NCBI RefSeq assembly: GCF_003334355.1
Contig: NZ_QOWP01000012.1
Strand: one strand, 5' to 3'
From: Escherichia coli
Lineage (GTDB): Bacteria > Pseudomonadota > Gammaproteobacteria > Enterobacterales > Enterobacteriaceae
Length of the DNA: 64,000 nt
Numbering within the stretch: position 1 is the stretch's first letter; every line of letters begins with the position of its first letter. The notes below the pieces were generated by a model. That model searched no databases. It was given only the letters and a program-made list of their open reading frames with translations, and was not told where the DNA came from. Shown in pieces: positions 5,893 through 56,077 of this stretch. The translations under genes and the position numbers were made by a program.

Positions 5893-6894
5893 ATGATTGA
5901 TTTACGCAGTGATACCGTTACCCGACCGAGCCGCGCCATGCTCGAAGCAATGATGGCCGCCCCGGTTGGGGACGACGTTTACGGAGACGACCCTACCGTT
6001 AATGCTCTGCAGGACTACGCCGCAGAGCTTTCCGGTAAAGAAGCCGCCATTTTTCTGCCGACCGGCACTCAGGCCAACCTGGTCGCTCTGCTCAGTCACT
6101 GCGAACGTGGCGAAGAGTATATTGTCGGTCAGGCCGCGCATAACTATCTGTTTGAAGCCGGTGGCGCAGCGGTGCTGGGCAGTATTCAGCCGCAACCCAT
6201 CGACGCGGCTGCCGACGGCACGCTACCGCTGGATAAAGTGGCGATGAAAATCAAACCCGACGATATCCATTTCGCCCGCACCAAATTACTCAGTCTGGAA
6301 AACACCCACAACGGCAAAGTGCTGCCGCGTGAATACCTGAAAGAAGCATGGGAATTTACCCGCGAGCGCAATCTGGCGCTGCATGTTGACGGTGCGCGCA
6401 TCTTTAATGCCGTGGTGGCTTACGGCTGCGAACTGAAAGAGATCACGCAATATTGTGATTCGTTCACCATTTGCCTGTCGAAAGGTCTTGGGACGCCAGT
6501 CGGTTCATTACTCGTCGGTAATCGTGATTACATTAAACGTGCCATCCGCTGGCGGAAAATGGCCGGTGGCGGGATGCGTCAGTCCGGGATTCTGGCTGCC
6601 GCCGGGATGTATGCCCTGAAAAATAACGTCGCACGGTTGCAGGAAGATCACGACAACGCCGCCTGGATGGCGGAGCAACTGCGTGAAGCAGGCGCGGATG
6701 TGATGCGTCAGGACACTAATATGCTGTTTGTTCGCGTCGGGGAAGAAAATGCTGCCGCGTTAGGCGAATACATGAAAGCGAGAAACGTGCTGATTAACGC
6801 CTCGCCGATTGTCCGCCTGGTGACGCATCTTGACGTCTCGCGCGAACAACTGGCGGAAGTCGCCGCCCACTGGCGCGCATTCCTGGCGCGTTAA
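5893..6894 (+). CDS. ltaE: Low-specificity L-threonine aldolase (PLP-dependent)
   Basis: 333 aa; [14 protein letters not shown]-terminus typical of threonine aldolases. Confidence 0.93.
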
Positions 6895-14540: not shown

Positions 14541-14611
14541 CTTGATGGCATTGTTATCCCATGCCGCAGACACGGCCAAAAATCATAAGATTGACAGACG
14601 GGAGTTCCATC

Positions 14612-15343
14612 ATGAAAAAGTTAGTTCTTGCCGCTTTACTTGCTTCCTTTACTTTCGGTGCTTCTGCCGCAGAGAAAATCAATTTTGGCGTTTCAGCCAC
14701 CTATCCACCCTTTGAATCTATAGGTGCTAATAATGAGATTGTCGGCTTTGATATCGATCTGGCAAAAGCCTTGTGCAAACAAATGCAGGCAGAATGTACT
14801 TTTACTAATCACGCGTTCGACAGCCTGATCCCGTCCCTGAAATTCAGAAAATATGACGCCGTAATCTCCGGTATGGATATCACCCCGGAGCGTAGCAAAC
14901 AGGTATCGTTTACCACGCCCTACTATGAAAACTCAGCCGTCGTGATTGCCAAAAAAGATACCTACAAAACGTTTGCCGATCTGAAAGGCAAACGTATTGG
15001 GATGGAAAACGGTACTACGCACCAGAAATATATTCAGGATCAGCACCCGGAAGTGAAAACTGTCTCTTATGACAGTTATCAGAATGCCTTTATCGATCTG
15101 AAAAATGGTCGTATTGATGGGGTATTTGGTGACACAGCGGTGGTAAACGAATGGCTGAAAACCAATCCACAACTTGGTGTTGCTACTGAGAAAGTGACCG
15201 ATCCGCAATATTTTGGCACCGGCCTGGGCATCGCTGTACGTCCGGATAACAAAGCCCTGCTGGAAAAACTGAATAACGCGCTGGCAGCAATTAAAGCTGA
15301 CGGTACTTATCAAAAAATCAGTGACCAGTGGTTCCCACAGTAA
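14612..15343 (+). CDS. artJ: Arginine-binding periplasmic protein ArtJ
   Basis: 243 aa from the ATG at 14612 (MKKLVLAALLASFTFGASA signal peptide). Confidence 0.93.
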   Translation: MKKLVLAALLASFTFGASAAEKINFGVSATYPPFESIGANNEIVGFDIDLAKALCKQMQAECTFTNHAFDSLIPSLKFRKYDAVISGMDITPERSKQVSFTTPYYENSAVVIAKKDTYKTFADLKGKRIGMENGTTHQKYIQDQHPEVKTVSYDSYQNAFIDLKNGRIDGVFGDTAVVNEWLKTNPQLGVATEKVTDPQYFGTGLGIAVRPDNKALLEKLNNALAAIKADGTYQKISDQWFPQ

Positions 15344-23280: not shown

Positions 23281-24003
23281 TTAGCGCGTCGCCCAACCCT
23301 GTTTGTGCAAATAATCCAGAATAAATGGGCGGCTTTCTTTAATGATTGTTCGGCGGATATGATCGCTCCAGGTATCCCGGCGATTATTGCTGCCACGGGT
23401 GAGGTAATATTCAGCCAGTTGTTCGTCATACTGCGCCAGTGCGTCTTTATCCAGCGGTTGATAGCTGTTTTCATGCACCAAAATGGAGGACGGTAAACGC
23501 GGCTTAAGATCCGGATTATCCGCAGGCCAGCCAAGGCACAGCCCAAACAGCGGCAGAACATGCTGCGGTAATTTCAGCAGTTTCGTCACCGCTTCAATAT
23601 TATTGCGCAGGCCGCCGATATATACGCCGCCCAATCCCAGCGATTCCGCTGCGATTAATGCATTCTGCGCCATCATTGCCGTATCAACGACACCGAGCAA
23701 CAGTTGTTCCGCCAGGCCGAGCTGAGCATCCGGACAGATCTGTAAATGGCGGTTAAAGTCGGCACAGAACACCCAGAACTCCGCCGCTTGCGCTACGTGT
23801 TTTTGCCCGCCGGTCAGCGTCACCAGTTCTTCACGTAACGCTTTGTCGGTAATGCGAATAATGCTACTGCACTGCAAAAAACTGGAACTGGACGTCGCAC
23901 GGGCGCTGTTAATAATCGCCTCACGCTGCGCTTCGGAAATGGGTTCATCAGTGAAATGGCGAATGGAGCGATGGCCACAAATAAGTTCAATGGTTGGCGT
24001 CAT
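23281..24003 (-). CDS. nfsA: Oxygen-insensitive NADPH nitroreductase NfsA
   Basis: 240 aa; MTPTIELICGHRSIRHFTDEPIS. Confidence 0.93.
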   Translation of the reverse strand: MTPTIELICGHRSIRHFTDEPISEAQREAIINSARATSSSSFLQCSSIIRITDKALREELVTLTGGQKHVAQAAEFWVFCADFNRHLQICPDAQLGLAEQLLLGVVDTAMMAQNALIAAESLGLGGVYIGGLRNNIEAVTKLLKLPQHVLPLFGLCLGWPADNPDLKPRLPSSILVHENSYQPLDKDALAQYDEQLAEYYLTRGSNNRRDTWSDHIRRTIIKESRPFILDYLHKQGWATR

Positions 24004-24274
24004 TATCTTTTTCTCTTTCTGAACGTGAATATTGCGGTGGACGGTTCATCAGCTGTGGGGCAAGACGTTTTGCCACCTGAAGAATAACCACCACCGCAGC
24101 GGGAAGCATGAGCAAAACACCGAGAAAAATCATCAGAATCTGCACTTCTGGCCGAGAAAATGGCTCAGGCAGCGACAGGGAGTCACTTACCGACAGCAGC
24201 GCCACCGCCAGTAGCATCATTCCGATAAATTCCAGTATCAACACGCCTTTAGGCAATTTACCGATCGCGCGCAT
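23987..24274 (-). CDS. ybjC: Small inner-membrane protein YbjC
   Basis: 95 aa; two hydrophobic helices; 3' end overlaps the nfsA start by 17 nt. Confidence 0.85.
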   Translation of the reverse strand: MRAIGKLPKGVLILEFIGMMLLAVALLSVSDSLSLPEPFSRPEVQILMIFLGVLLMLPAAVVVILQVAKRLAPQLMNRPPQYSRSEREKDNDANH

Positions 24275-24433
24275 ACGCTTCCCTCTGCAAAGTGAGCCTT
24301 CAGTCTAAAACTTTTCACTGTATTGTGTTTAACAGTTATAGCTTTTAGCAATTAATGCAACAGGTTAAACCTACTTTCAGCGAATACATTTTAGCGTGAT
24401 CATTACAGGCATAAATCTATGAGGAGAGAAATA

Positions 24434-24691
24434 ATGCAAACCGTTATTTTTGGTCGTCCGGGTTGCCCTTACTGTGTGCGTGCAAAAGATCTGGCTGAGA
24501 AATTGAGCAATGAACACGATGATTTTCAGTATCACTATGTAGATATTCGTGCGGAAGGGATCACTAAAGAAGATCTACAACAAAAGGCAGGTAAACCCGT
24601 AGAAACCGTGCCGCAGATTTTTGTCGATCAGCAACATATCGGCGGCTATACCGATTTTGCTGCATGGGTGAAAGAAAATCTGGACGCCTGA
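24434..24691 (+). CDS. grxA: Glutaredoxin 1
   Basis: 85 aa from the ATG at 24434; CPYC active site (GRPGCPYCVRAK). Confidence 0.93.
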   Translation: MQTVIFGRPGCPYCVRAKDLAEKLSNEHDDFQYHYVDIRAEGITKEDLQQKAGKPVETVPQIFVDQQHIGGYTDFAAWVKENLDA

Positions 24692-24701
24692 TCGTCTGAC
24701 A

Positions 24702-24736
24702 AGCCCTCGCGTTGAGGGCTTTACTGATTTTTTCTG
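24702..24736. terminator. Bidirectional intrinsic terminator between convergent grxA and ybjM
   Basis: Hairpin AGCCCTCGCG-ttg-AGGGCT followed by TTACTGATTTTTT. Confidence 0.55.
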
Positions 24737-25098
24737 TGCTGTGGTTTAAACAAACTACTGATAAATAAGAAACACAGTGCCCCCAGCGCACACCAGAACA
24801 CCGCACTTAATAACCATGCCAGCTCTTGCCAGAATGAGCGCGTCGGTGAAAAAAACAGCCGCATAATGAGCATCGAACAGGGTGCCGCCAGCATTGCGCC
24901 AAACAGAGGTTTCAGGACTTCTCTACGCTGTGAAAAGAAGCTGGCGACTGCTCCAGGAAGAATGAAAAATAGCAAGCCGATTTCAGGATGCCCGGCAGCC
25001 CGAAAAGCGCCTTTCATGTGCGTCGCCAGAAAAAGGCACACCACAATGAAGAGGACAAAACAGCAGATTGCCCCCGCCCAACGTTGTTTATGTTTCAC
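24721..25098 (-). CDS. ybjM: Uncharacterised inner membrane protein YbjM
   Basis: 125 aa; four hydrophobic segments. Confidence 0.85.
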   Translation of the reverse strand: MKHKQRWAGAICCFVLFIVVCLFLATHMKGAFRAAGHPEIGLLFFILPGAVASFFSQRREVLKPLFGAMLAAPCSMLIMRLFFSPTRSFWQELAWLLSAVFWCALGALCFLFISSLFKPQHRKNQ

Positions 25099-25367
25099 TC
25101 GTTCCTCCTGACACTGCGTCTATCGAACACATTTTTCGCCAGTGTGGCGTTCAGTAAGATAAAGCCGCTTCGCATTCCATGCTAATATAGGCCAACGCAA
25201 TTCATATAGCCGTTGATACCTAATGTGATTACACTAGTAAAATATATTGTTACTTTACTATCGTTTAGGTGCGCTGAATGAATCTGCGCCCTGAATTCTG
25301 GTAAAAAACATTATCGTAAATTACCATTTCTTTCAACAGCTTACTAGTAAACAAGAAGTTAGCCTCC

Positions 25368-27053
25368 GTGAATATAAACGTCGCCGAATTGTTAAATGGG
25401 AATTACATTCTGTTATTATTTGTGGTCCTCGCGCTTGGGCTATGTCTCGGAAAGTTACGACTTGGTTCGATCCAACTGGGTAATTCCATTGGCGTTTTAG
25501 TCGTATCGCTGTTATTAGGCCAACAACATTTCAGCATTAACACCGATGCGCTTAATCTTGGCTTTATGCTGTTTATTTTCTGTGTTGGGGTTGAAGCCGG
25601 ACCGAACTTTTTTTCCATTTTTTTTCGCGATGGGAAAAATTACCTAATGTTAGCACTGGTGATGGTTGGCAGTGCGCTGGTGATCGCCTTAGGGTTAGGT
25701 AAGCTGTTTGGCTGGGATATTGGCCTGACGGCCGGTATGTTAGCAGGCTCTATGACGTCGACACCGGTTCTGGTCGGTGCTGGCGATACACTGCGTCATT
25801 CCGGCATGGAAAGCAGGCAGCTCTCACTGGCACTGGATAATCTGAGCCTCGGGTATGCCTTAACCTATTTAATCGGTCTGGTGAGTTTGATTGTTGGTGC
25901 GCGTTACTTGCCGAAATTGCAGCATCAGGACTTACAGACCAGCGCCCAGCAAATCGCCCGCGAACGTGGCCTGGACACTGATGCCAACCGTAAGGTTTAT
26001 TTACCGGTGATCCGCGCCTATCGCGTCGGCCCGGAGCTGGTGGCCTGGACCGACGGCAAAAATCTGCGTGAACTGGGTATTTATCGACAAACCGGCTGCT
26101 ACATTGAACGTATTCGACGTAACGGGATTCTGGCAAATCCAGACGGTGATGCCGTGCTACAAATGGGCGATGAAATAGCGTTGGTAGGCTATCCCGACGC
26201 CCATGCCCGACTCGATCCCAGCTTCCGTAACGGTAAAGAAGTTTTCGATCGTGACCTTCTCGACATGCGTATCGTCACTGAAGAAGTGGTCGTTAAAAAC
26301 CATAACGCTGTAGGTAAACGTCTCGCACAACTGAAGTTGACCGATCACGGTTGCTTCCTTAACCGCGTCATTCGTAGCCAGATTGAGATGCCGATAGATG
26401 ACAACGTCGTGCTTAACAAAGGTGACGTTTTACAAGTCAGCGGTGATGCCCGTCGCGTAAAAACCATCGCCGATCGCATCGGCTTTATCTCGATTCACAG
26501 CCAGGTCACTGACCTGCTGGCATTTTGCGCCTTCTTTGTTATTGGGCTGATGATCGGGATGATCACCTTCCAGTTCAGCACATTCAGTTTCGGCATGGGG
26601 AACGCTGCCGGGTTGTTATTCGCCGGAATTATGCTGGGCTTTATGCGTGCTAACCACCCGACCTTCGGTTACATTCCGCAGGGTGCATTAAGCATGGTGA
26701 AAGAGTTCGGCTTGATGGTGTTTATGGCAGGCGTTGGTCTGAGCGCCGGTAGCGGTATTAATAACGGCCTGGGCGCGATTGGCGGTCAGATGTTGATTGC
26801 CGGATTGATTGTCAGTCTGGTGCCCGTGGTTATCTGTTTCTTGTTCGGTGCTTATGTATTGCGAATGAACCGCGCGCTGTTGTTCGGCGCAATGATGGGC
26901 GCACGTACCTGCGCGCCGGCAATGGAGATCATCAGTGATACAGCTCGCAGTAACATCCCGGCGCTGGGCTATGCGGGCACCTATGCAATCGCCAACGTCC
27001 TGCTGACGCTGGCAGGGACAATCATCGTCATGGTATGGCCAGGATTAGGATAA
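25368..27053 (+). CDS. ybjL: Putative AAE-family transporter YbjL with two TrkA-C (RCK_C) domains
   Basis: 561 aa from an apparent GTG start at 25368; hydrophobic N- and C-terminal halves around a soluble central region. Confidence 0.88.
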
Positions 27054-27847: not shown

Positions 27848-29056
27848 ATGACCGTAAATTCTTCACGTAATGCATTGAAACGCCGAACCTGGGCGCTGTT
27901 TATGTTCTTCTTTTTGCCAGGCCTGTTAATGGCGTCCTGGGCAACCCGTACGCCTGCTATCCGCGATATTCTCTCTGTCTCGATCGCTGAAATGGGCGGT
28001 GTTCTCTTTGGTCTGTCGATCGGTTCGATGAGCGGTATTCTCTGCTCGGCGTGGTTAGTGAAACGCTTTGGGACACGTAATGTCATCCTGGTCACGATGT
28101 CCTGCGCATTGATCGGGATGATGATATTAAGTCTGGCACTCTGGCTGACATCGCCCCTGCTCTTTGCCGTTGGTCTCGGCGTCTTTGGGGCAAGTTTTGG
28201 TTCTGCGGAAGTGGCGATAAACGTTGAAGGTGCCGCCGTTGAGCGAGAAATGAATAAAACGGTTTTGCCGATGATGCACGGTTTTTATAGCCTGGGCACG
28301 CTGGCAGGCGCTGGTGTCGGGATGGCACTGACGGCCTTTGGCGTTCCGGCAACGGTGCACATTTTATTGGCGGCGCTGGTAGGTATCGCGCCTATTTATA
28401 TCGCCATTCAGGCAATCCCTGACGGTACGGGCAAAAATGCTGCCGATGGCACCCAGCATGGCGAAAAAGGCGTACCTTTTTATCGCGATATCCAGTTGCT
28501 GCTGATTGGTGTTGTGGTGCTGGCGATGGCCTTTGCCGAAGGTTCTGCCAACGACTGGTTACCCTTATTAATGGTTGACGGTCACGGTTTTAGCCCCACT
28601 TCCGGCTCGCTGATTTATGCCGGTTTTACCCTGGGGATGACCGTTGGACGCTTCACTGGCGGTTGGTTCATCGACCGTTACAGTCGCGTTGCCGTGGTTC
28701 GGGCCAGTGCGCTAATGGGGGCGTTGGGTATTGGGCTGATTATTTTTGTCGATAGCGCCTGGGTCGCTGGGGTGTCTGTTGTACTCTGGGGAATGGGTGC
28801 CTCGCTGGGCTTCCCGCTGACCATTTCTGCCGCCAGCGATACCGGCCCCGATGCACCAACCCGCGTCAGTGTGGTAGCAACGACCGGTTATCTGGCTTTC
28901 CTCGTCGGGCCGCCGCTGCTGGGCTATCTCGGCGAACATTATGGATTACGTAGTGCAATGCTGGTTGTACTGGCGCTGGTTATTCTCGCGGCTATTGTCG
29001 CGAAAGCCGTCGCCAAACCCGATACCAAAACGCAGACGGCGATGGAGAATAGTTGA
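27848..29056 (+). CDS. ybjJ: MFS transporter YbjJ
   Basis: 402 aa; 12 predicted transmembrane segments. Confidence 0.88.
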
Positions 29057-29871
29057 TGAGCATTAAATTAATTGCGGTAGACATGGATGGTACTTTCTTA
29101 AGCGATCAAAAAACCTATAACCGTGAGCGGTTTATGGCTCAGTATCAGCAAATGAAAGCACAAGGCATTCGCTTTGTGGTCGCCAGCGGGAATCAATATT
29201 ATCAGTTGATCTCTTTCTTCCCTGAAATTGCTAATGAAATTGCCTTTGTGGCTGAAAACGGCGGCTGGGTAGTGAGTGAAGGCAAAGATGTTTTTAATGG
29301 CGAGCTGTCGAAGGATGCCTTTACTACTGTCGTGGAACATTTGCTGACGCGCCCGGAAGTGGAAATTATTGCCTGCGGAAAAAATAGCGCCTATACGCTC
29401 AAAAAATATGACGATGCCATGAAAACGGTGGCGGAAATGTATTATCACCGTCTGGAATACGTCGATAACTTTGACAACTTAGAAGATATTTTCTTTAAGT
29501 TTGGCCTGAATCTTTCCGATGAACTGATTCCACAAGTACAAAAAGCATTACATGAGGCCATCGGCGATATTATGGTGCCAGTCCACACCGGCAACGGCAG
29601 CATCGATCTGATTATCCCCGGCGTACATAAAGCCAATGGCCTTCGCCAACTGCAGAAATTATGGGGAATAGACGACAGCGAAGTGGTGGTCTTTGGCGAT
29701 GGCGGTAACGATATTGAGATGCTGCGTCAGGCAGGCTTTAGTTTTGCAATGGAAAATGCCGGCAGCGCGGTCGTCGCAGCGGCAAAATACCGGGCAGGCT
29801 CCAATAACCGTGAAGGCGTACTGGATGTGATCGATAAAGTGCTTAAACACGAAGCGCCATTTGACCAATAA
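29056..29871 (+). CDS. ybjI: HAD-superfamily Cof-like phosphatase YbjI
   Basis: 271 aa; [14 protein letters not shown] with DxDGT HAD motif I; clear paralogue of ybiV at 55262; start overlaps the ybjJ stop. Confidence 0.9.
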   Translation: MSIKLIAVDMDGTFLSDQKTYNRERFMAQYQQMKAQGIRFVVASGNQYYQLISFFPEIANEIAFVAENGGWVVSEGKDVFNGELSKDAFTTVVEHLLTRPEVEIIACGKNSAYTLKKYDDAMKTVAEMYYHRLEYVDNFDNLEDIFFKFGLNLSDELIPQVQKALHEAIGDIMVPVHTGNGSIDLIIPGVHKANGLRQLQKLWGIDDSEVVVFGDGGNDIEMLRQAGFSFAMENAGSAVVAAAKYRAGSNNREGVLDVIDKVLKHEAPFDQ

Positions 29872-37151: not shown

Positions 37152-38477
37152 ATGAGCAAAGTAACTCCCCAGCCGAAAATCGGCTTTGTTTCCCTTGGCT
37201 GTCCGAAAAACCTTGTTGATTCAGAGCGTATTCTCACCGAACTCCGCACTGAAGGTTATGACGTGGTACCGAGCTATGACGATGCGGACATGGTGATCGT
37301 CAACACCTGCGGCTTTATTGACAGCGCGGTACAAGAATCACTGGAAGCCATTGGTGAAGCGTTGAATGAAAACGGCAAGGTTATTGTGACCGGTTGTCTG
37401 GGGGCAAAAGAAGATCAGATCCGCGAAGTCCACCCGAAAGTGCTGGAAATCACCGGGCCTCATAGCTATGAGCAGGTTCTGGAGCACGTTCATCACTACG
37501 TGCCGAAACCGAAACACAACCCATTCCTGAGCCTGGTGCCAGAACAAGGTGTGAAACTGACGCCGCGTCATTATGCCTATCTGAAAATTTCTGAAGGCTG
37601 TAATCACCGCTGCACCTTCTGCATTATTCCGTCTATGCGCGGCGACCTGGTGAGCCGTCCGATTGGCGAAGTGTTAAGTGAAGCGAAACGTCTGGTAGAT
37701 GCGGGCGTTAAAGAGATTCTGGTGATCTCGCAGGATACTTCCGCCTATGGCGTTGATGTTAAACATCGTACTGGCTTCCACAACGGCGAGCCGGTAAAAA
37801 CCAGCATGGTCAGCCTGTGCGAACAGTTATCGAAACTGGGGATCTGGACACGTCTGCACTACGTTTACCCTTATCCGCATGTGGACGACGTCATCCCACT
37901 GATGGCAGAAGGCAAAATCCTGCCGTATCTGGACATTCCGTTGCAGCACGCCAGCCCGCGCATTCTCAAACTGATGAAGCGTCCGGGTTCTGTAGATCGC
38001 CAACTGGCGCGCATCAAACAGTGGCGCGAAATCTGCCCGGAACTGACCCTACGCTCAACCTTTATTGTCGGCTTCCCTGGCGAGACGGAAGAAGATTTCC
38101 AGATGCTACTCGACTTCCTGAAAGAAGCGCGTCTGGATCGCGTTGGCTGCTTTAAATACAGCCCGGTTGAAGGTGCAGACGCCAATGCCCTGCCTGACCA
38201 GGTTCCGGAAGAAGTGAAAGAAGAACGCTGGAACCGTTTCATGCAGCTGCAGCAGCAGATTTCCGCCGAGCGCCTGCAAGAGAAAGTGGGCCGTGAAATT
38301 CTGGTGATTATCGACGAAGTGGACGAAGAAGGCGCAATTGGTCGCAGCATGGCAGATGCACCGGAAATCGACGGCGCGGTTTATCTCAATGGTGAAACCA
38401 ACGTTAAGCCGGGTGATATCCTGCGTGTGAAAGTCGAGCACGCCGATGAGTACGATTTGTGGGGTAGCCGGGTTTAA
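37152..38477 (+). CDS. rimO: Ribosomal protein S12 methylthiotransferase (radical SAM, MiaB family)
   Basis: 441 aa; radical-SAM CNHRCTFC motif and N-terminal MTTase Cys. Confidence 0.93.
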
Positions 38478-38484
38478 TTAATTC

Positions 38485-38512
38485 AGGCCGGGCAAAATCA
38501 TTTGTCCGGCCT
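38485..38512. other. Inverted repeat AGGCCGG...CCGGCCT between convergent rimO and dgcI
   Basis: Read directly; no U-run; possible bidirectional terminator. Confidence 0.35.
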
Positions 38513-38523
38513 GCGAATAATGA

Positions 38524-39852
38524 TTACTGCCAGCTAATCTGTGCCCTGCCGTTTTTCTTACTCTTATACAGCCGCTCATCCGCCAGCATTTTCAAGCGTT
38601 CGACGGTAGGACATTCATTTGAATGTGCTACACCGATACTGGTACTTAAATTAATGCTTCCCACCTGGAAATGAACGATTTCTTTTAGAATCGATAGCAA
38701 CTCTTCCAGCGTTCCACCCGTATAAATCACCGCAAATTCGTCACCGCCGAAGCGGTAGACTTTACCTTTATCTACCGGGATCTGTGATTTAAGGATTTTC
38801 ACCACTTTCATCAACACTTCATCGCCCAGCAAATGACCGAAGGTGTCGTTAATGTTTTTGAATTTATCGACGTCAAACAGGCACAAATAACCGCCTTTTT
38901 CCGGCAGCGCTTTTAAATCTTCGTCAAAGGATTTTCTGCCCATTGCTTTGGTCAGGTCGTCCAGGAACGCCGAGTTATACATACTGTAGAGTTTTTTGAC
39001 ATCGGCAGCCGAAAAGAAAAGCCCGCCATCCAGTACGCGTTCAAAATGGTTATTAATGATGGCTTCTTTCTCCACAATACCACGATTAATCACTCTGCGT
39101 ACCAGATAGAGGCAACTGGCACCCGATATCACTGCCACCAATGCGGCAAAGAAAATAATCAATGTACAAACCCGCAAATAAACATCTTTTTTATACGCAA
39201 ATACATACAATCCGGTCGGCAAATAGGCGAAGTGCTCCATCGCTTCCGAAACGGTGAAGATGGCGTTTTTAGCATTATATTCATCACCGGTCACCGGTTT
39301 ACCGTTCTTAAATAGAGAGAACATCAGGTTCTCGCTGTCCATCGCCAGCGATTTTGACAGTAAAGAAAAACGCTCCAGACCAAGCAAAAATATCAGACTA
39401 CGATTGTGAGTTACCGGATAGAGGTAATAGACGAAGGTTTTACCGTCAAAAGAGATAAACCCTGTATTTTTGACATGTCGATACTTCACAACCTGCATAA
39501 TATCTGCACAATAATTTTTCTCGAACTCCTTTACCTGAATACATTCGTCACTGGAAATCAGATAAGGACCGACATCGTACAAATAAGAGGGGGAAACCGA
39601 GTCGGCGTAAGCTGTGCGCAAACCAACCAACAGCTGTTCCTCCGTGGGATTTAGCGTGTTGATAAGATCAATTGCCACGCTACGCCGATATTCAGCAATA
39701 TTTGCCACCGCAAAAGCAGTATCAATAACGGACTGTTTCAGGCTATACACCCGTTCCTTTACCATTTGAGTGTAGATCCCGCAGGCAACTGCTGAAATCA
39801 TGATAAAAATCAGCAGACTGACTGTAAGTACGAACTTATTGATTCTGGACAT
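38524..39852 (-). CDS. dgcI: Membrane-anchored diguanylate cyclase (GGDEF)
   Basis: 442 aa; N-terminal transmembrane segment, periplasmic region, second transmembrane segment, then GGDEF domain (RFGGDEF). Confidence 0.9.
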
Positions 39853-39859
39853 ACGTAAA

Positions 39860-42208
39860 CTACTCTTTTACTAATTTTCCACTTTTATCCCAGGCGGAGA
39901 ATGGCATGGGTTTCTGGTACAGATACCCCTGAGCCTGAACACATCCTAATTTAATTAATTCGCGCGCAACGTCTTCGCTCTCTACGCCTTCCGCAATCAC
40001 CGGGATCCGGTTATAGCGTGCCAGATCGAAAATAATGCGCACAATTTTTCCCGCAGTACCGAAAATATCGCCGGTAAATTGCGAGTCCACCTTTATGCTG
40101 TCTGGATTAATTTCATAAAAACGTTTCAGGTTTGACAAACCGGTGCCAAAGTCATCAATCGATATCCGTACCCCTTGTTTACGCAGTTGTTCAATATTGA
40201 GATAAAAATGTTCATTAATTCGCTCGATCACGGTTTCAGTGATCTCAACACAGAGGCTGTTCGCCTTCAGGCCATTTTCTTTCATGATGGTGGTAAAACA
40301 CTCATGAAAGTGCGGTTCGTTTAACTGCCAGGGCGAAACATTAATATGCAGTAAGAAATCATCCTTCAGCGACGCACGCTGACTAAAATGTCTGAATTCA
40401 CCCATTGCCGTTTTAATAATCTGATAACCCAGCTCATTGATAAACCCGATATCTTCAGCAATGGTAATGAACTTCAGCGGTGAAATGATCCCCCGCTCCG
40501 CAGAAACCCAACGGCACAACGCCTCCGCGCCCAGAATGGCGCGGGTGTTAATATCAACGATCGGTTGATAGACGAGGAATAGTTCGCCAATTTCCATTGC
40601 ATGGCGAATATTACGCGCAATCCAGATATTCTCTTCTATTTCGTTGAGTTTCGCGTCATCACAGAAAATAAACTCGGAGAACATATGGTCACGGATACTG
40701 GAAATCGCCAGTTTCAGTTTTTCTGCGTAACTCCAGGCGTTTTCCCCCTGCAAAGGTTCACAAATGGCAGACTTATGGATGCGCAGATTGCGGTAGCCAA
40801 AGCTGCTGTCAAAATCGTTTACCATCGCTATTTTACGGGTAAATGTCTGTACATTTTCCCGACACAGAAGTAAATAGAGATCGGCATTGAATGTCACGAT
40901 ATCGCAGCATTGCGCATATTTCTCGGCAATTCGCTGACACAATTTCCTGACGATTTTATTGCGTTCATCAACACCAAACACCGCTTCCACGGCTTCCAGA
41001 CCACACAGTTTGATGATCCCCACAGCCAGATACTGATTATTGTTGGACTCAATAATCGCCATATTTTTAATAAAACCGCTTTCCTGATCGTAAGAGATCA
41101 GTGAGAGCAATTTATTTGACCGTTCAATTTCGGCATCTTTCATTTCCGCGATCGAATTTTTGATGCTGATAATCTCTTTCGCATCGCCTTCGCGAATTTT
41201 CAGAGCCTCGATCTGATCCGTTGAGTCGGGCAAAAACGCCAGCGTATTAACCAGCTCGGTCATTTCAGAAAATTGCCGACGGAACACACGAGTGGTCATG
41301 AAATATACCACCAGCAACACGATAATAATGAACGCAAACGGTAGATAAAAAAGTTTATCTGATGCGTTCAATAAATTACCGCCAGGATAATAAAAATAGA
41401 TTTCGAACAATGCATTATTTGGCACTGCTGATGTCTTTGCAATATACTCCGTATCGACAGAATCAATAATATTATAATTACCTTCGCTATTATAAATAAT
41501 CAGTTTTTCACGAGCGAGTTGATTCTTGGCAATGATCTCATGACCTTGTTTCAAAAATAGAACTTCATCATTAGCGCTGATTTGATCAAGATACTCGTTC
41601 AGATACCGCCAGTTTAAATCGACATGAATTTTATCTACCGCTAACAAATCGTGATCTTTGCCGTTGATACGTAGCGTAAAAGAGATACATTTTTTACCCG
41701 GACGATCAAAGCAATTGTATGCCGGATTCCAGCTGTTGTTAGAGTCATCTGAAGCCACCGACCACGGTCGTTTCGATGGGTTAAAATCGGCAAAAATAAC
41801 CCGCCCTGACTCGTCGACAAGCGGTCCATTTACTTGTTCCTGATGATAAACAACGATTTTATCATTCGCCCTCCGCGAAAAGAGATAATATTTATTATCA
41901 TCAAGTACCAGTCCCACCGAGTCTAAAAATGGCATCATTTCCATTTTCAGAATCACGGCGCGTTGAATCTCCTCTGTATTTTTTAATAAATACAGTGAGT
42001 CCTTTAATGTCAGGGCCGAACGTTCAATATCTTTAAAGAAATAGCCAACGTTTTTCTGAATAAGTTCAAAGCGGCTATCGGCACGTTTTACCGCGCGTTC
42101 CGATACCAGTTGATAGTTAATGATGAAAAAAAGACCAATAAATGACAGTGCTGCCAATAAAAATAAAATTATCAGCCTTATCTTTATCTTTTCGTATAAA
42201 CTCAGCAT
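39860..42208 (-). CDS. pdeI: Membrane-anchored c-di-GMP phosphodiesterase (EAL)
   Basis: 782 aa from the ATG (complement at 42206-42208); periplasmic sensor region, degenerate GGDEF-like segment, C-terminal EAL domain. Confidence 0.88.
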
Positions 42209-42385
42209 GTTAATACATTTAACAAAATAACTATCTGAACGCTGTGCCGCTGCAAAAATAGTCCCTTGCTGCGGCTTTTTAACCAAATTACCCGATTCTA
42301 CAAAATCAGCAGAAAGTTACAACACTTGCTTAGGGCAATAATTTCCTGTGAGGTGATTACCCTTTCAAGCAATATTCAAACGTAA

Positions 42386-43297
42386 CTATCCTTTAATTTT
42401 CGGATCCAGCGCATCGCGTAAACCATCGCCCAACAAATTGAACGCCAGTACGGTCAGAAAAATAGCCAGGGCCGGAAAAACAGCGACATGCGGCGCGATA
42501 ACCATATCCGCTCGTGCCTCATTGAGCATTGCTCCCCACTCTGGTGTCGGCGGCTGCGCACCGAGGCCGAGAAATGACAGGCTGGCGGCAGAGATAATCG
42601 AGGTGCCAATGCGCATGGTGAAAAACACCACGATAGACGAGACGGTCCCAGGCAAGATATGACGCAATAAAATGGTCATATCGCTGGCACCAATACTGCG
42701 TGCTGACTCAATAAAGGTTTGCTGTTTCAACACCAGCGTGTTGCCGCGCACCAGTCGGGCAAACGCGGGGATGGAAAAAATGGCGACTGCGATAATCACG
42801 TTAGCAATGCCGCTTCCCAACACCGCAACAACAGCGATCGCCAGTAAAATACCCGGGAAGGCAAACAGCACATCGCAAATGCGCATGATCAGCCGATCCC
42901 ACCAGCCTTCATAATATCCAGCCAACAAGCCCAGCAACGTCCCGATCGCCGCACCGATAAACACGGCAAACACGCCCGCCGCCAGCGAGATTTGCGCACC
43001 AACCAGGACACGGCTGAAAATGTCGCGCCCCAGTGAATCGACGCCAAACCAGTGCTGCAAAGAAGGTCCGTTATTCAGGTTGTCATAATCAAAATAATTT
43101 TCGGCGTCATAGGGAGCGATCCAGCGTGCAAAAATGGCCACCACAATCAATAAAATAACGAATAATGCGGCGGTCATCGCCATATGCTGACGGCGAAATC
43201 GTCGCCAGAATTCATGCCACGGTGTACGCACCTGGTCAGGTTTGACCAGTGGCATGGCGTTTAACACCGCCTGACGTCGCCAGTTAAATAGTCGCAT
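42386..43297 (-). CDS. gsiD: Glutathione ABC transporter permease
   Basis: 303 aa; DppC/OppC-type permease. Confidence 0.92.
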
Positions 43298-55261: not shown

Positions 55262-56077
55262 ATGAGCGTAAAAGTTATCGTCACAGACATGGACGGTACT
55301 TTTCTTAACGACGCCAAAACGTACAACCAACCACGTTTTATGGCGCAATATCAGGAACTGAAAAAGCGCGGCATTAAGTTCGTTGTTGCCAGCGGTAATC
55401 AGTATTACCAGCTTATTTCATTCTTTCCTGAGCTAAAGGATGAGATCTCTTTTGTCGCGGAAAACGGCGCACTGGTTTACGAACATGGCAAGCAGTTGTT
55501 CCACGGCGAACTAACCCGACATGAATCGCGGATTGTTATTGGCGAGTTGCTAAAAGATAAGCAACTCAATTTTGTCGCCTGCGGTCTGCAAAGTGCATAT
55601 GTCAGCGAAAATGCCCCCGAAGCATTTGTCGCACTGATGGCAAAACACTACCATCGCCTGAAACCTGTAAAAGATTATCAGGAGATTGACGACGTACTGT
55701 TCAAGTTTTCGCTCAACCTGCCGGATGAACAAATCCCGTTAGTGATCGACAAACTGCACGTAGCGCTCGATGGCATTATGAAACCCGTTACCAGTGGTTT
55801 TGGCTTTATCGACCTGATTATTCCCGGTCTACATAAAGCAAACGGTATTTCGCGGTTACTGAAACGCTGGGATCTGTCACCGCAAAATGTGGTAGCGATT
55901 GGCGACAGCGGTAACGATGCGGAGATGCTGAAAATGGCGCGTTATTCCTTTGCGATGGGCAATGCTGCGGAAAACATTAAACAAATCGCCCGTTACGCTA
56001 CCGATGATAATAATCATGAAGGCGCGCTGAATGTGATTCAGGCGGTGCTGGATAACACATCCCCTTTTAACAGCTGA
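55262..56077 (+). CDS. ybiV: HAD-superfamily Cof-like sugar phosphatase
   Basis: 271 aa; [14 protein letters not shown]; strongly similar to ybjI at 29056. Confidence 0.9.

Follow-up and report, generated by a model that had tools for sequence, protein, structure and literature searches.

The segment analysed here lies in a 64-kb stretch of Escherichia coli DNA (hereafter, the window) and consists of two consecutive minus-strand genes predicted to encode a membrane c-di-GMP phosphodiesterase of 782 amino acids, pdeI (yliE; 39860..42208), and a membrane diguanylate cyclase of 442 amino acids, dgcI (yliF; 38524..39852). Both assignments combine the list of open reading frames and the RefSeq annotation with domain searches, which detected CHASE9 and EAL domains in PdeI (Pfam) and GAPES2 and GGDEF domains in DgcI (Pfam; NCBIfam TIGR00254 for the latter); the pdeI frame is open over 39860..42286 on the minus strand, and the ATG at 42208 yields the 782-residue RefSeq protein. 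A 7-nt spacer (39853..39859, minus strand, TTTACGT) separates the stop codon of pdeI from the start of dgcI, and a weak Shine-Dalgarno-like AAGAG sits within the final pdeI codons. The presumed promoter and leader of pdeI occupy the AT-rich interval that follows the gsiD stop and precedes the first codon of pdeI (42209..42385, minus strand, 37% GC), and a GC-rich hairpin, folded with RNAfold, lies between the convergent rimO and dgcI genes (38484..38513). The whole Escherichia-specific segment, from the rimO stop to the gsiD stop (38478..42385), is 3,908 bp long.

Compared over 4.9 kb, the DNA is 100% identical to the chromosome of E. coli EC5 and 99.0% identical to that of NEB10-beta, a K-12 derivative, and the locus is 99–100% identical in many E. 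coli chromosomes; a match is present in every one of the 5,426 complete genomes of the species, and in 5,382 it spans 80% or more of the 4.9-kb query. The identification of this segment as the named pair pdeI–dgcI (yliE–yliF), made earlier by a sequence-only reading of the same DNA, is correct but not new, as the gene names and the Pfam sensor families have already been published; compared with PdeI (YliE) and DgcI (YliF) of E. coli K-12, these are the same genes, and only the strain differs, the window being non-K-12. These names belong to the 2016 systematic nomenclature of GGDEF and EAL proteins. The anatomy proposed by that reading is upheld as well: Pfam and hydropathy analysis identify one GGDEF and one EAL protein, each with two transmembrane segments that enclose periplasmic sequence (about 200 residues in DgcI and 255 in PdeI), and the minus-strand genes are separated by the 7 nt that had been counted.

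In DgcI, a periplasmic GAPES2 sensor with an invariant Cys104/Cys115 pair (aa 26–229, E 2e-143; 39166..39777, minus strand) is followed by a GGDEF catalytic domain (aa 295–437, E 1.6e-24; 38542..38970, minus strand) that was delimited by Pfam, alignments with DosC and DgcZ, and motif positions. This domain scores 90.8 bits against the TIGR00254 GGDEF model (cut-off 37.4) and matches 49 PDB GGDEF chains at E <= 1e-3. Its A-site RFGGDEF (aa 367–373) and the motifs FDVDKFK (326) and NDTFGH (335) are intact, and the catalytic motifs are invariant across all four paralogue clades. In both the alignment and the motif check, DgcI has VDKG instead of the RxxD inhibitory site, five residues before GGDEF; RxxD is a common feature of GGDEF cyclases, not a defining one. 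The orthologue from strain CFT073 has likewise been scored KNDHDRGGDEF, with a non-consensus I-site (PMC3484386). We predict that DgcI is a canonical GGDEF cyclase of the inner membrane and that it is active. The S. flexneri protein has been reported to make c-di-GMP, the cyclase WspR complements a yliF deletion in CFT073 (PMC3484386), and deletion phenotypes have been reported for both CFT073 and S. flexneri. In K-12, DgcI was undetectable under standard conditions, its reporter expression was very low, if any, and the protein was toxic when overproduced (PMC5635695).

In PdeI, the EAL catalytic domain (aa 532–767, Pfam E 1.8e-68; 39908..40615, minus strand), delimited by Pfam, PDB alignments and motif positions, has a top PDB match with an E-value of 8.6e-44 and a complete set of motifs (EALCR 562, NVSP 622, EITE 655, DDFGTG 685, KVD 705, EGVE 740, QGY 759). 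The catalytic motifs are kept in all paralogue clades, and every EAL catalytic position of PdeI has been scored as consensus (PMC3484386), features expected of the canonical EAL phosphodiesterase of the inner membrane that we predict PdeI to be. Published evidence for the activity is indirect: overexpression of pdeI blocks c-di-GMP-dependent infection by phage N4 (efficiency of plating < 8e-8), as does that of six other phosphodiesterases (PMC7553319), and strains lacking pdeH become more motile through suppressor mutations in pdeI. At the level of motifs, the opposing activities that the sequence-only reading attributed to the two proteins are borne out, all catalytic motifs being intact in both.

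That reading omitted a PdeI domain of about 160 residues located between the second transmembrane segment and EAL. This middle cytoplasmic domain (aa 370–525; 40634..41101, minus strand), which contains G412, has been called a degenerate GGDEF domain in the literature on structural grounds (PMC11651652; bioRxiv 10.1101/2025.05.09.653004). Searched alone, it gave zero matches in Pfam, PDB profiles and NCBIfam, and its hhalign comparisons with GGDEF were not significant (E 0.25 and 0.051); in this non-significant register, FNADLY falls on FGGDEF and VFGVDE on TFGHxxGDE. The full-length NCBIfam models of GepA and DosP align through the domain, the DosP model covering residues 388–770. At the position of GG[DE]EF, PdeI and its paralogues contain FNADLY, FNSNTY, LSSDLY, INKNKY, ISDKIF or LSPYKY; there is no Asp at the metal-binding positions, which vary within the family. 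The domain is under purifying selection (dN/dS 0.076 against E. albertii) and is devoid of every catalytic motif of diguanylate cyclases; direct synthesis of c-di-GMP by it is therefore unlikely.

The periplasmic sensor of PdeI (aa 33–285; 41354..42112, minus strand) was modelled with AF2 (pLDDT 87.2, pTM 0.83). The model has a long N-terminal helix, two PAS-like alpha/beta modules and high similarity to solved dCache domains, so that a double-Cache fold is confidently predicted. In profile searches, the Pfam CHASE9 match (aa 35–150, E 2e-62) spans just the membrane-distal part of the sensor and is the only one reported, the dCache_1 model gives no match even at E <= 10, and a PDB search with the sensor family profile returned a sole match, 7k5n, at E 0.93. 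In dCache_1AA sensors, amino acids are recognised through the motif YxxxxRxWY...Y[x27-34]D (Y121, R126, W128, Y144, D173; PMC8915833). Mapped by sequence pattern and the weak 7k5n alignment, not by structural superposition, PdeI F142-x4-R147-x-W149...Y164...D197 fits this motif at R, W, Y and D, with 14 residues from W to Y (13–17 allowed) and 32 from Y to D (27–34 allowed), and is conserved in most clades. The first Tyr is replaced by Phe in chromosomal PdeI proteins and is present in the plasmid clades; the position of Tyr129 is Ser in chromosomal PdeI. Compared with the dCache_1 small-molecule sensors of the AA and AM groups (PctA, McpU, PctD, CqsR), PdeI is thus filed apart as CHASE9, differs at these two Tyr positions, and has an additional conserved Cys166/Cys174 pair. 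The ligand is probably a small amine- or carboxylate-bearing molecule. The structural prediction that the sequence-only reading had proposed for both periplasmic domains succeeded for PdeI but not for DgcI, the model of which is unreliable (pLDDT 50.8) and does not establish a fold; for neither domain has a ligand been described, consistent with the earlier view of the signals.

The AT-richness that had been noticed by eye is real. The GC content of 38524–42208 is 42.36%, far from the 51.99% of the rest of the window, and no other stretch of this length in the window is lower (mean 0.522, sd 0.0175, minimum 0.482); for the whole segment, 38478..42385, the value is 42.2% against 51.9% in the flanks. 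When the 51 ORFs that reach 150 aa are ranked by GC content, pdeI (0.418, z -4.2) and dgcI (0.435, z -3.5) come last, with GC1, GC2 and GC3 each at least 2.2 sd low (GC3, 2.3–3.3 sd), and residues F/L/I/M/N/K/Y make up 0.44–0.45 of the two proteins against a mean of 0.355. The skew thus involves bases and amino acids. Codon adaptation, calculated with the other genes of the window as reference, did not single out either gene (CAI z -1.07, rank 9 of 51, for dgcI; z -0.51, rank 18 of 51, for pdeI). The neighbouring membrane-protein genes gsiC and gsiD have a normal GC content.

Comparison of rimO loci supports the older horizontal acquisition that had been suggested from composition. The pair is present between rimO and gsiD in E. 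coli, E. albertii and E. fergusonii, the last of which shows the same synteny; the rimO–gsiD spacer of E. coli measures 3,908 bp and that of E. albertii 4,621 bp, and the GC content is 0.39–0.42 in the three species against 0.50–0.53 in the flanks. The sample of seven loci from six genera outside Escherichia (Salmonella not included) lacks the pair: the spacer measures 41–104 bp in Citrobacter werkmanii, Mangrovibacter and two Enterobacter-like strains (four loci, three genera), and three further genera contain other cargo or none. A AGGCCGGG...CCGGCCT hairpin, similar to that at 38484..38513 (-23.0 kcal/mol on the plus strand and -20.2 on the minus strand by RNAfold), occupies the 57-bp spacer of Citrobacter, and the element in E. 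coli is probably an ancestral bidirectional rimO/gsiD terminator or a REP-like element. At the segment, we found no flanking direct or inverted repeats, integrase or transposase, or tRNA target, and homologue searches revealed no donor; the case for horizontal origin therefore rests on composition and phyletic pattern, which support an old, genus-level acquisition at or before the base of Escherichia.

Beyond Escherichia and its plasmids, relatives of either sensor half are essentially absent. In a word-seeded search of 5.8e9 clusters, the hits with a named source came from Escherichia or Shigella only; an exhaustive phmmer search of 1.84e9 representative proteins yielded 55 hits, which, apart from a few at 23–32% identity, were pieces of the query protein itself; and in AFDB similarity falls sharply beyond the Escherichia family. 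The plasmid records with YliE/YliF-like pairs are, all but one, from Escherichia. In these paralogous pairs, the N-terminal sensor regions searched are only 24–34% identical, the EAL gene precedes the GGDEF gene as on the chromosome, the two either overlapping by 11 nt or lying 62 nt apart, and the GC content is lower still (0.33–0.35). Both chromosomal genes are under purifying selection, with dN/dS against E. albertii of 0.049 for dgcI and 0.056 for pdeI, and 0.04–0.08 in every domain.

The single operon postulated by the sequence-only reading is well supported, and we infer co-transcription from several lines of evidence: scans of the 7-nt gap, in themselves uninformative, gave neither a promoter nor a terminator signal that exceeded chance, the gene order is shared by E. 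fergusonii with a 9-nt gap, the plasmid paralogues retain this order, and the mRNAs of pdeI and dgcI rise together at 37 C in CFT073. Between gsiD and pdeI there is no convincing terminator and one weak sigma-70-like site (42322–42295), not above chance; about 250 bp upstream of pdeI served as the native promoter in a recent study (eLife 2024, PMC11651652), in which pdeI expression was heterogeneous and biofilm-associated. Taken together, these data suggest that a two-gene cassette was inserted where rimO and gsiD, two convergent genes, had been separated by a short spacer. Transcribed first, pdeI would be followed after 7 nt by dgcI, so that the two proteins would be co-produced at a low level, and more so at 37 C. 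The double-Cache sensor of PdeI would control the EAL phosphodiesterase through the second transmembrane segment, the linker and the non-catalytic GGDEF-like middle domain, and the different periplasmic sensor of DgcI, GAPES2, would control a GGDEF cyclase devoid of the product-inhibition site. The result would be a push-pull module in which two periplasmic inputs set a (probably local) c-di-GMP pool; the physical or functional coupling of the two proteins and the target of the module are, like the ligand class, what we infer. As a whole, we consider this explanation quite likely.

The origin and relevance of the cassette could be seen differently. The low GC might reflect local mutation bias or the amino acid requirements of membrane sensors in an ancestral pair that was lost in other genera, an idea compatible with the ordinary synonymous codon adaptation, with a skew that lies partly in GC1, GC2 and amino acid composition, and with the lack of mobility genes and flanking repeats. 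We find it extremely improbable, as GC3 is also low, gsiC and gsiD encode membrane proteins at normal GC, the plasmid paralogues are even more AT-rich, and the sensor homologues are confined, in essence, to Escherichia and its plasmids; moreover, the pair is absent from all six sampled genera with adjacent rimO and gsiD, four of the seven loci retaining just the short hairpin-bearing spacer, so that a single gain is a more parsimonious explanation than several separate losses without trace. Nor does it appear other than very improbable that the pair is a silenced, cryptic and functionally irrelevant relic that is just tolerated. The near-absence of DgcI and its reporter activity in K-12 could be read this way, as could the truncated alleles often met in databases (one cluster of 399-aa DgcI proteins alone comprises 1,305 sequences), the IS1 insertions or deletions at the locus in some E. 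coli strains, and the 5' frameshift in pdeI of the E. albertii type-strain draft; against this stand a dN/dS close to 0.05 in all domains since E. coli and E. albertii diverged, retention of the locus in 5,382 of 5,426 genomes, the deletion phenotypes in CFT073 and S. flexneri, and the heterogeneous expression in biofilms and induction at 37 C.

The activity of PdeI is where the published data conflict. It has been claimed that PdeI acts in vivo as a c-di-GMP synthase via its divergent GGDEF domain, which would turn the pair into two cyclases: a positive correlation links PdeI-BFP to the signal of a c-di-GMP reporter, HPLC-MS/MS shows an 11-fold rise in c-di-GMP on expression of pBAD::pdeI, and G412S, in the middle domain, abolishes the rise (PMC11651652). 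We regard this as quite improbable, given a middle domain that GGDEF profiles do not recognise and in which the motif and metal-binding Asp are missing, the complete EAL catalytic site, and the phage N4 and motility phenotypes; the study, furthermore, left the downstream partner dgcI out of consideration. A tentative possibility, to which we give modest weight, is that PdeI mainly regulates DgcI, its GGDEF-like domain binding and activating or gating the cyclase, with net synthesis or degradation dictated by the signals at the two periplasmic domains; the contradiction between the reports would then disappear. The pdeI-then-dgcI pairing is strictly kept in three very diverged cassettes, the non-catalytic middle domain is under purifying selection, and DgcI, lacking the I-site and toxic when overproduced, would need another brake. 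GGDEF cyclases act as dimers, which makes a pseudo-GGDEF partner a plausible regulator. G412S in the middle domain indeed switches the phenotype (PMC11651652), but DgcI was toxic from the higher-copy two-hybrid vector and hence was not assayed both ways in the interactome (PMC5635695), and a protein undetectable in K-12 is a doubtful source of an 11-fold rise. A degenerate GGDEF domain in GGDEF-EAL proteins usually regulates its own EAL domain, and that is the simpler reading.

We know of no input signal for most of the membrane-bound c-di-GMP enzymes of E. coli. This species has 12 cyclases and 13 phosphodiesterases, and PdeI in particular has been tied to persister-rich biofilm subpopulations through the claimed synthase activity (PMC11651652), for which the sequence offers no support. 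The classification of the locus is unchanged, an ordinary and already annotated one; what is added here is the genus-specific acquisition, the predicted canonical small-molecule-binding double-Cache pocket in PdeI, and the co-travelling of phosphodiesterase and cyclase genes in diverged copies. A distinctly doubtful joint reading would go further, with CHASE9 being an unrecognised, highly diverged member of the universal dCache_1 class of amino acid and amine sensors, by which PdeI would read a periplasmic amino acid or a related gut metabolite, PdeI–DgcI an obligate, co-inherited module of two sensors in which the pseudo-GGDEF domain gates DgcI, and cellulose synthase the ancestral wiring, of which the plasmids would still show the arrangement. 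If true, it would reconcile the degradation of c-di-GMP by PdeI with its reported rise and would assign a class of ligands to an enzyme that is among the last in the c-di-GMP network of E. coli to lack a known signal.

The pair has counterparts among known systems. The YliE/YliF-like pairs by the bcsA2-4 cellulose synthase clusters (bioRxiv 10.1101/2025.05.09.653004) have the same architectures and the same gene order; they reside on plasmids of the IncHI1B or IncFIB type, in many cases with bcsA-bcsB about 0.8 kb downstream, whereas the chromosomal pair has no exopolysaccharide genes alongside. DosC homologues also accompany the plasmid bcs clusters (bioRxiv 10.1101/2025.05.09.653004). The dosC-dosP (dgcO-pdeO) operon likewise consists of adjacent co-oriented cyclase and phosphodiesterase genes with opposing activities, the phosphodiesterase being a GGDEF-EAL protein with a non-catalytic GGDEF domain. 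DosC and DosP are cytoplasmic haem/O2 sensors and the cyclase gene comes first, whereas PdeI and DgcI are both anchored in the membrane, with periplasmic domains as sensors, and the phosphodiesterase gene leads.

The two genes considered here lie in a stretch of E. coli chromosome and are a named, annotated pair, dgcI (formerly yliF) and pdeI (formerly yliE), placed by RefSeq in the order rimO, dgcI, pdeI, gsiD. A 4.9-kb query for the locus matches strain EC5 with 100% identity and has matches in every one of 5,426 complete E. coli genomes, with a coverage of 80% or more in 5,382. In the list of open reading frames, dgcI (38524..39852, minus strand, 442 aa) and pdeI (minus strand, from an ATG at 42208 to its end at 39860, 782 aa) are separated by exactly the 7 nt that had been read by eye. 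A longer pdeI frame from a TTG at 42286 (808 aa) was rejected, as RefSeq places the start at ATG 42208, the extension is not conserved and the upstream region in E. fergusonii is just 130 nt. Pfam assigns DgcI a GAPES2 sensor (aa 26–229, E = 2e-143) and a GGDEF domain (aa 295–437), and PdeI a CHASE9 sensor (aa 35–150, E = 2e-62) and an EAL domain (aa 532–767); the large periplasmic regions proposed from the sequence alone are borne out by hydropathy profiles that contain two membrane segments in each protein, flanking ~200 residues in DgcI and ~255 in PdeI. Both the locus and the Pfam families to which its sensors belong were already known, and the finding is classed as such; earlier work has also noted that the locus is restricted to Escherichia, that CHASE9 is of the dCache type and that paralogues exist on plasmids (bioRxiv 10.1101/2025.05.09.653004). 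What may be new are the explicit empty-site evidence between rimO and gsiD, the near-complete amino-acid-binding motif in PdeI, the conserved periplasmic cysteine pairs and the argument from sequence against a reported synthase activity of PdeI, all of them refinements of a known locus and of modest interest overall.

The sequence-only reading had described the pair as AT-rich, and computation bears this out, with a GC content of 42.4% as against 52.0% for the remainder of the window. No other stretch of this length in the 64 kb is as low (outside the pair, mean 0.522, standard deviation 0.0175, minimum 0.482), dgcI and pdeI have the two lowest GC values of 51 open reading frames (z = -3.5 and -4.2, respectively), and all three codon positions are depressed. 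Codon adaptation, which had been suggested as a further check, turned out to be unremarkable against the background of the window's remaining genes (z = -1.07 for dgcI and -0.51 for pdeI) and was dropped as a signal of foreign origin in favor of base composition and the empty site. Since codon adaptation is usual while GC is low, the skew is one of base and amino acid composition; the fraction of F, L, I, M, N, K and Y residues is 0.44–0.45 in the pair versus 0.355. Milder low-GC patches or genes occur at 14561–15343, 29056–29871, 55262–56077, 330–1229 and ~24000–26000 (GC 0.45–0.48, compared to a gene mean of 0.528), none of them down to the level of dgcI or pdeI.

The rimO loci of other genomes, seven of them from outside Escherichia, were retrieved and their neighbors mapped. 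The convergent rimO and gsiD genes are separated by 57 bp in Citrobacter werkmanii, by 42 and 41 bp in Enterobacter sp. Bisph1 and BIGb0383, and by 104 bp in Mangrovibacter; the spacers of Erwinia psidii (499 bp) and Enterobacter sp. Ag1 (880 bp) are longer and also free of the pair, and that of Superficieibacter (3,046 bp) holds unrelated cargo of normal GC. The pair is present in the spacers of E. coli (3,908 bp) and E. albertii (4,621 bp), and E. fergusonii has the identical order, gsiABCD-pdeI-(9 nt)-dgcI-rimO-bssR. In all three Escherichia species the GC content is 0.39–0.42. Next to rimO in E. coli, a GC-rich hairpin (38484–38513, -23 kcal/mol) is similar to the one occupying the Citrobacter spacer, which places the cassette between the gsiD stop codon and an old, shared terminator. 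The 3' flank of rimO has the appearance of a hot spot for repeated insertion, the cargo differing between genomes. Neither flanking repeats nor mobility genes nor other signatures of mobile elements were found at the cassette borders, and no Rfam family was detected in the 36–44 kb region of the window. Among side observations, the rimO-proximal spot of E. albertii NBRC 107761 (locus L005, 2016–2720) carries a ~230-aa HEAT-repeat-like frame that matches NCBIfam PRK09687 ('putative lyase') with E = 2e-34, below the cut-off, and a frame resembling it by eye lies in the 3-kb spacer of Superficieibacter electus (L006, 12652–13341); the Ag1 spacer (L010, 11427–12167), a further instance of differing cargo at this site, contains a 246-aa frame whose N-terminus resembles a signal peptide and whose C-terminal ...YTF resembles that of outer membrane proteins.

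Among the source-named matches in 5.8 billion clusters, the N-terminal parts searched (530 aa for PdeI, 290 aa for DgcI) are confined to Escherichia and Shigella. When 1.84 billion representatives were searched exhaustively with HMMER, 55 matches emerged, nearly all fragments of the same protein, with a few at 23–32% identity; in the AlphaFold database (AFDB), similarity drops sharply beyond the Escherichia family, and no donor can be named from these homology searches. The empty sites, the low GC in three Escherichia species and the restriction of homologues to the genus support the older horizontal acquisition that had been proposed by eye, the simplest reading of the loci sampled being that the pair was gained once, long ago, at or before the base of Escherichia. 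The sole labels outside Escherichia in the CHASE9 family are two AFDB entries (A0A921FY77 and A0A5V0LE90), namely a 777-aa protein assigned to 'Sporosarcina psychrophila' with 26% identity and a fragment from Salmonella enterica with 23%, and one Salmonella plasmid record; the two entries resemble the plasmid paralogues and could carry a wrong species label or derive from plasmids.

Plasmid copies of both sensor halves were detected by tblastn at 24–34% identity (68 and 98 plasmid records), in Escherichia for all records except one. On p2017.02.03CC_1 the EAL and GGDEF genes share an 11-nt overlap and are located 0.8 kb upstream of bcsA-bcsB, a link of plasmid pairs with cellulose clusters that has been described (bioRxiv 10.1101/2025.05.09.653004), and pTB402 carries a third, yet more diverged pair, 62 nt apart and flanked by IS elements. 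The plasmid cassettes have a GC content of 33–35%. The order of phosphodiesterase gene followed by cyclase gene has been kept in three lineages despite divergence to ~24–34% identity, which is our strongest argument that PdeI and DgcI work together. The PdeI paralogue of pTB402 (L003, 6503–8851) contains ~11 'INS' tripeptide repeats (SINSINSINS...) within its periplasmic sensor, and its clade has lost the R-x-W and Tyr residues of the sensor pocket.

In comparison with E. albertii, the dN/dS values of dgcI (0.049) and pdeI (0.056) fall inside the range of the flanking genes (0.002–0.08), and every domain of the pair lies between 0.04 and 0.08; in absolute terms the pair evolves faster than its neighbors, with 69% (PdeI) and 78% (DgcI) identity to E. 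fergusonii compared to 98% for RimO. Some strains have IS1 insertions or deletions at the locus, among them an ST131 strain with an IS1 element within pdeI and HCP30S3_I2, in which 24% of the 4.9-kb query is matched and an IS1A element occupies the site. Shortened alleles are common in databases (protein clusters P0015, P0017 and P0005), although some may be assembly artefacts; they include a 399-aa DgcI ending in ...EIVHFGGEH, in which the C-terminal ~45 residues of the GGDEF domain are missing (1,305 member sequences), as well as a DgcI of 299 aa and a PdeI of 445 aa whose last residues are FNADLY (667 members). In the E. albertii type-strain draft (L005, ~6330–6400), a T-run at the 5' end of pdeI has 7 T where 8 would be needed for an intact frame such as that of other E. 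albertii sequences (P0002, 201 members); this frameshift puts TM1 out of frame and may be due to a sequencing error, to decay into a pseudogene or to phase variation.

The active site of DgcI is canonical, with RFGGDEF at 367–373 and FDVDKFK and NDTFGH upstream, and VDKG stands in place of the RxxD product-inhibition site, a reading of the motifs with which the residue table for the CFT073 orthologue concurs (PMC3484386). No relative of this GGDEF domain exceeds ~40% identity outside Escherichia. Prediction of the periplasmic structures, another suggested check, was confident for PdeI but poor for the DgcI sensor (pLDDT 50.8), for which only four diverse sequences exist; Cys104 and Cys115 in this sensor are invariant, and hhalign detected no similarity between the two periplasmic domains (E = 0.65). 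In K-12 the DgcI protein is undetectable, and it is toxic on overproduction (PMC5635695). Both mRNAs are higher at 37 °C in CFT073; BolA raises both. Promoter and terminator scans of 38300–42700 were uninformative (12 and 6 sites versus 9.1 and 4.4 expected), and as no convincing terminator follows gsiD, transcripts of the glutathione-import operon could read through into the cassette. An RpoN (sigma-54) peak between yliE and yliF ('yliE > yliF') is listed in a gSELEX study; across the window, matches to the sigma-54 pattern show no enrichment (293 versus 343 expected) and nothing can be claimed from them. One such site, AGGGACTATTTTTGCA (42251–42266, minus strand), has two mismatches to the consensus TGGCAC-N5-TTGCW and lies 43–58 nt upstream of the pdeI start. 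H-NS silencing is put forward as a hypothesis only, a literature search having given no direct link between H-NS and yliE.

PdeI contains a further ~160-aa domain (aa 370–525), located after TM2 and before the EAL domain, that the sequence-only reading had overlooked and that two papers call a divergent GGDEF (PMC11651652; bioRxiv 10.1101/2025.05.09.653004). In isolation it gave no GGDEF match in Pfam (8 members), with a PDB profile or in NCBIfam (5 members), and hhalign comparisons to 4-sequence and 81-sequence GGDEF profiles did not reach significance (E = 0.25 and 0.051). In each of these two comparisons FNADLY is paired with FGGDEF and VFGVDE with TFGHxxGDE, and alignments to the full-length NCBIfam models GepA and DosP run through the domain. 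Because the GG[DE]EF position is replaced across the family by NADLY, NSNTY, SADLY, SSDLY, NKNKY, SDKIF or SPYKY, the domain, which is under purifying selection (dN/dS 0.076), cannot be a conventional cyclase active site, whatever its ancestry. All catalytic and metal-binding motifs of the EAL domain are present (EALCR 562, NVSP 622, EITE 655, DDFGTG 685, KVD 705, EGVE 740 and QGY 759), and the CFT073 table agrees on the catalytic residues (PMC3484386).

These features suggest a mechanism in which a single transcript, starting upstream of pdeI, would yield both PdeI, a putative ligand-gated EAL phosphodiesterase, and DgcI, a cyclase presumably gated differently and without feedback inhibition. 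Phosphodiesterase activity of PdeI in vivo is supported by the block to phage N4, which requires c-di-GMP and whose EOP falls to < 8e-8 on overexpression of pdeI, as with six other phosphodiesterases (PMC7553319); suppressor mutations in pdeI also increase motility of a pdeH-deleted strain. In an eLife report, by contrast, overexpressed PdeI led to an 11-fold increase in c-di-GMP, which was lost with G412S (PMC11651652). Given the motifs of PdeI, direct synthesis cannot easily explain this increase. The G412S substitution reportedly comes from Reinders et al. 2016. The pseudo-GGDEF domain of PdeI might rather activate or gate DgcI or another cyclase, an explanation that we consider unlikely; dgcI, 7 nt downstream of pdeI, was not considered in that report (PMC11651652).

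The AlphaFold2 model of PdeI sensor residues 33–287, built from an 11-sequence alignment, is confident (pLDDT 87.2, pTM 0.83), agrees with the YliE models in AFDB (TM 0.95–0.96) and implies that Pfam CHASE9 describes just the membrane-distal portion of a dCache domain, the same description being given, as CHASE9-xCache, in a 2025 preprint (bioRxiv 10.1101/2025.05.09.653004). The Cys166/Cys174 pair is conserved throughout the family. The sole PDB sequence touched by the PdeI-family profile, the dCache cyclase 7k5n, is not a significant hit (E = 0.93), with RPW set opposite RPWY. Compared to the amino-acid-binding motif of dCache_1, YxxxxRxWY...Y[x27-34]D (PMC8915833), PdeI has F142-x4-R147-x-W149-S150...Y164...D197, with all spacings within those allowed. 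The R, W and Y positions are conserved in all clades except one, and that of D197 is D or E in each clade that covers it. As a lead rather than a demonstration, this likeness to dCache_1 points to the class of ligand that PdeI may bind.
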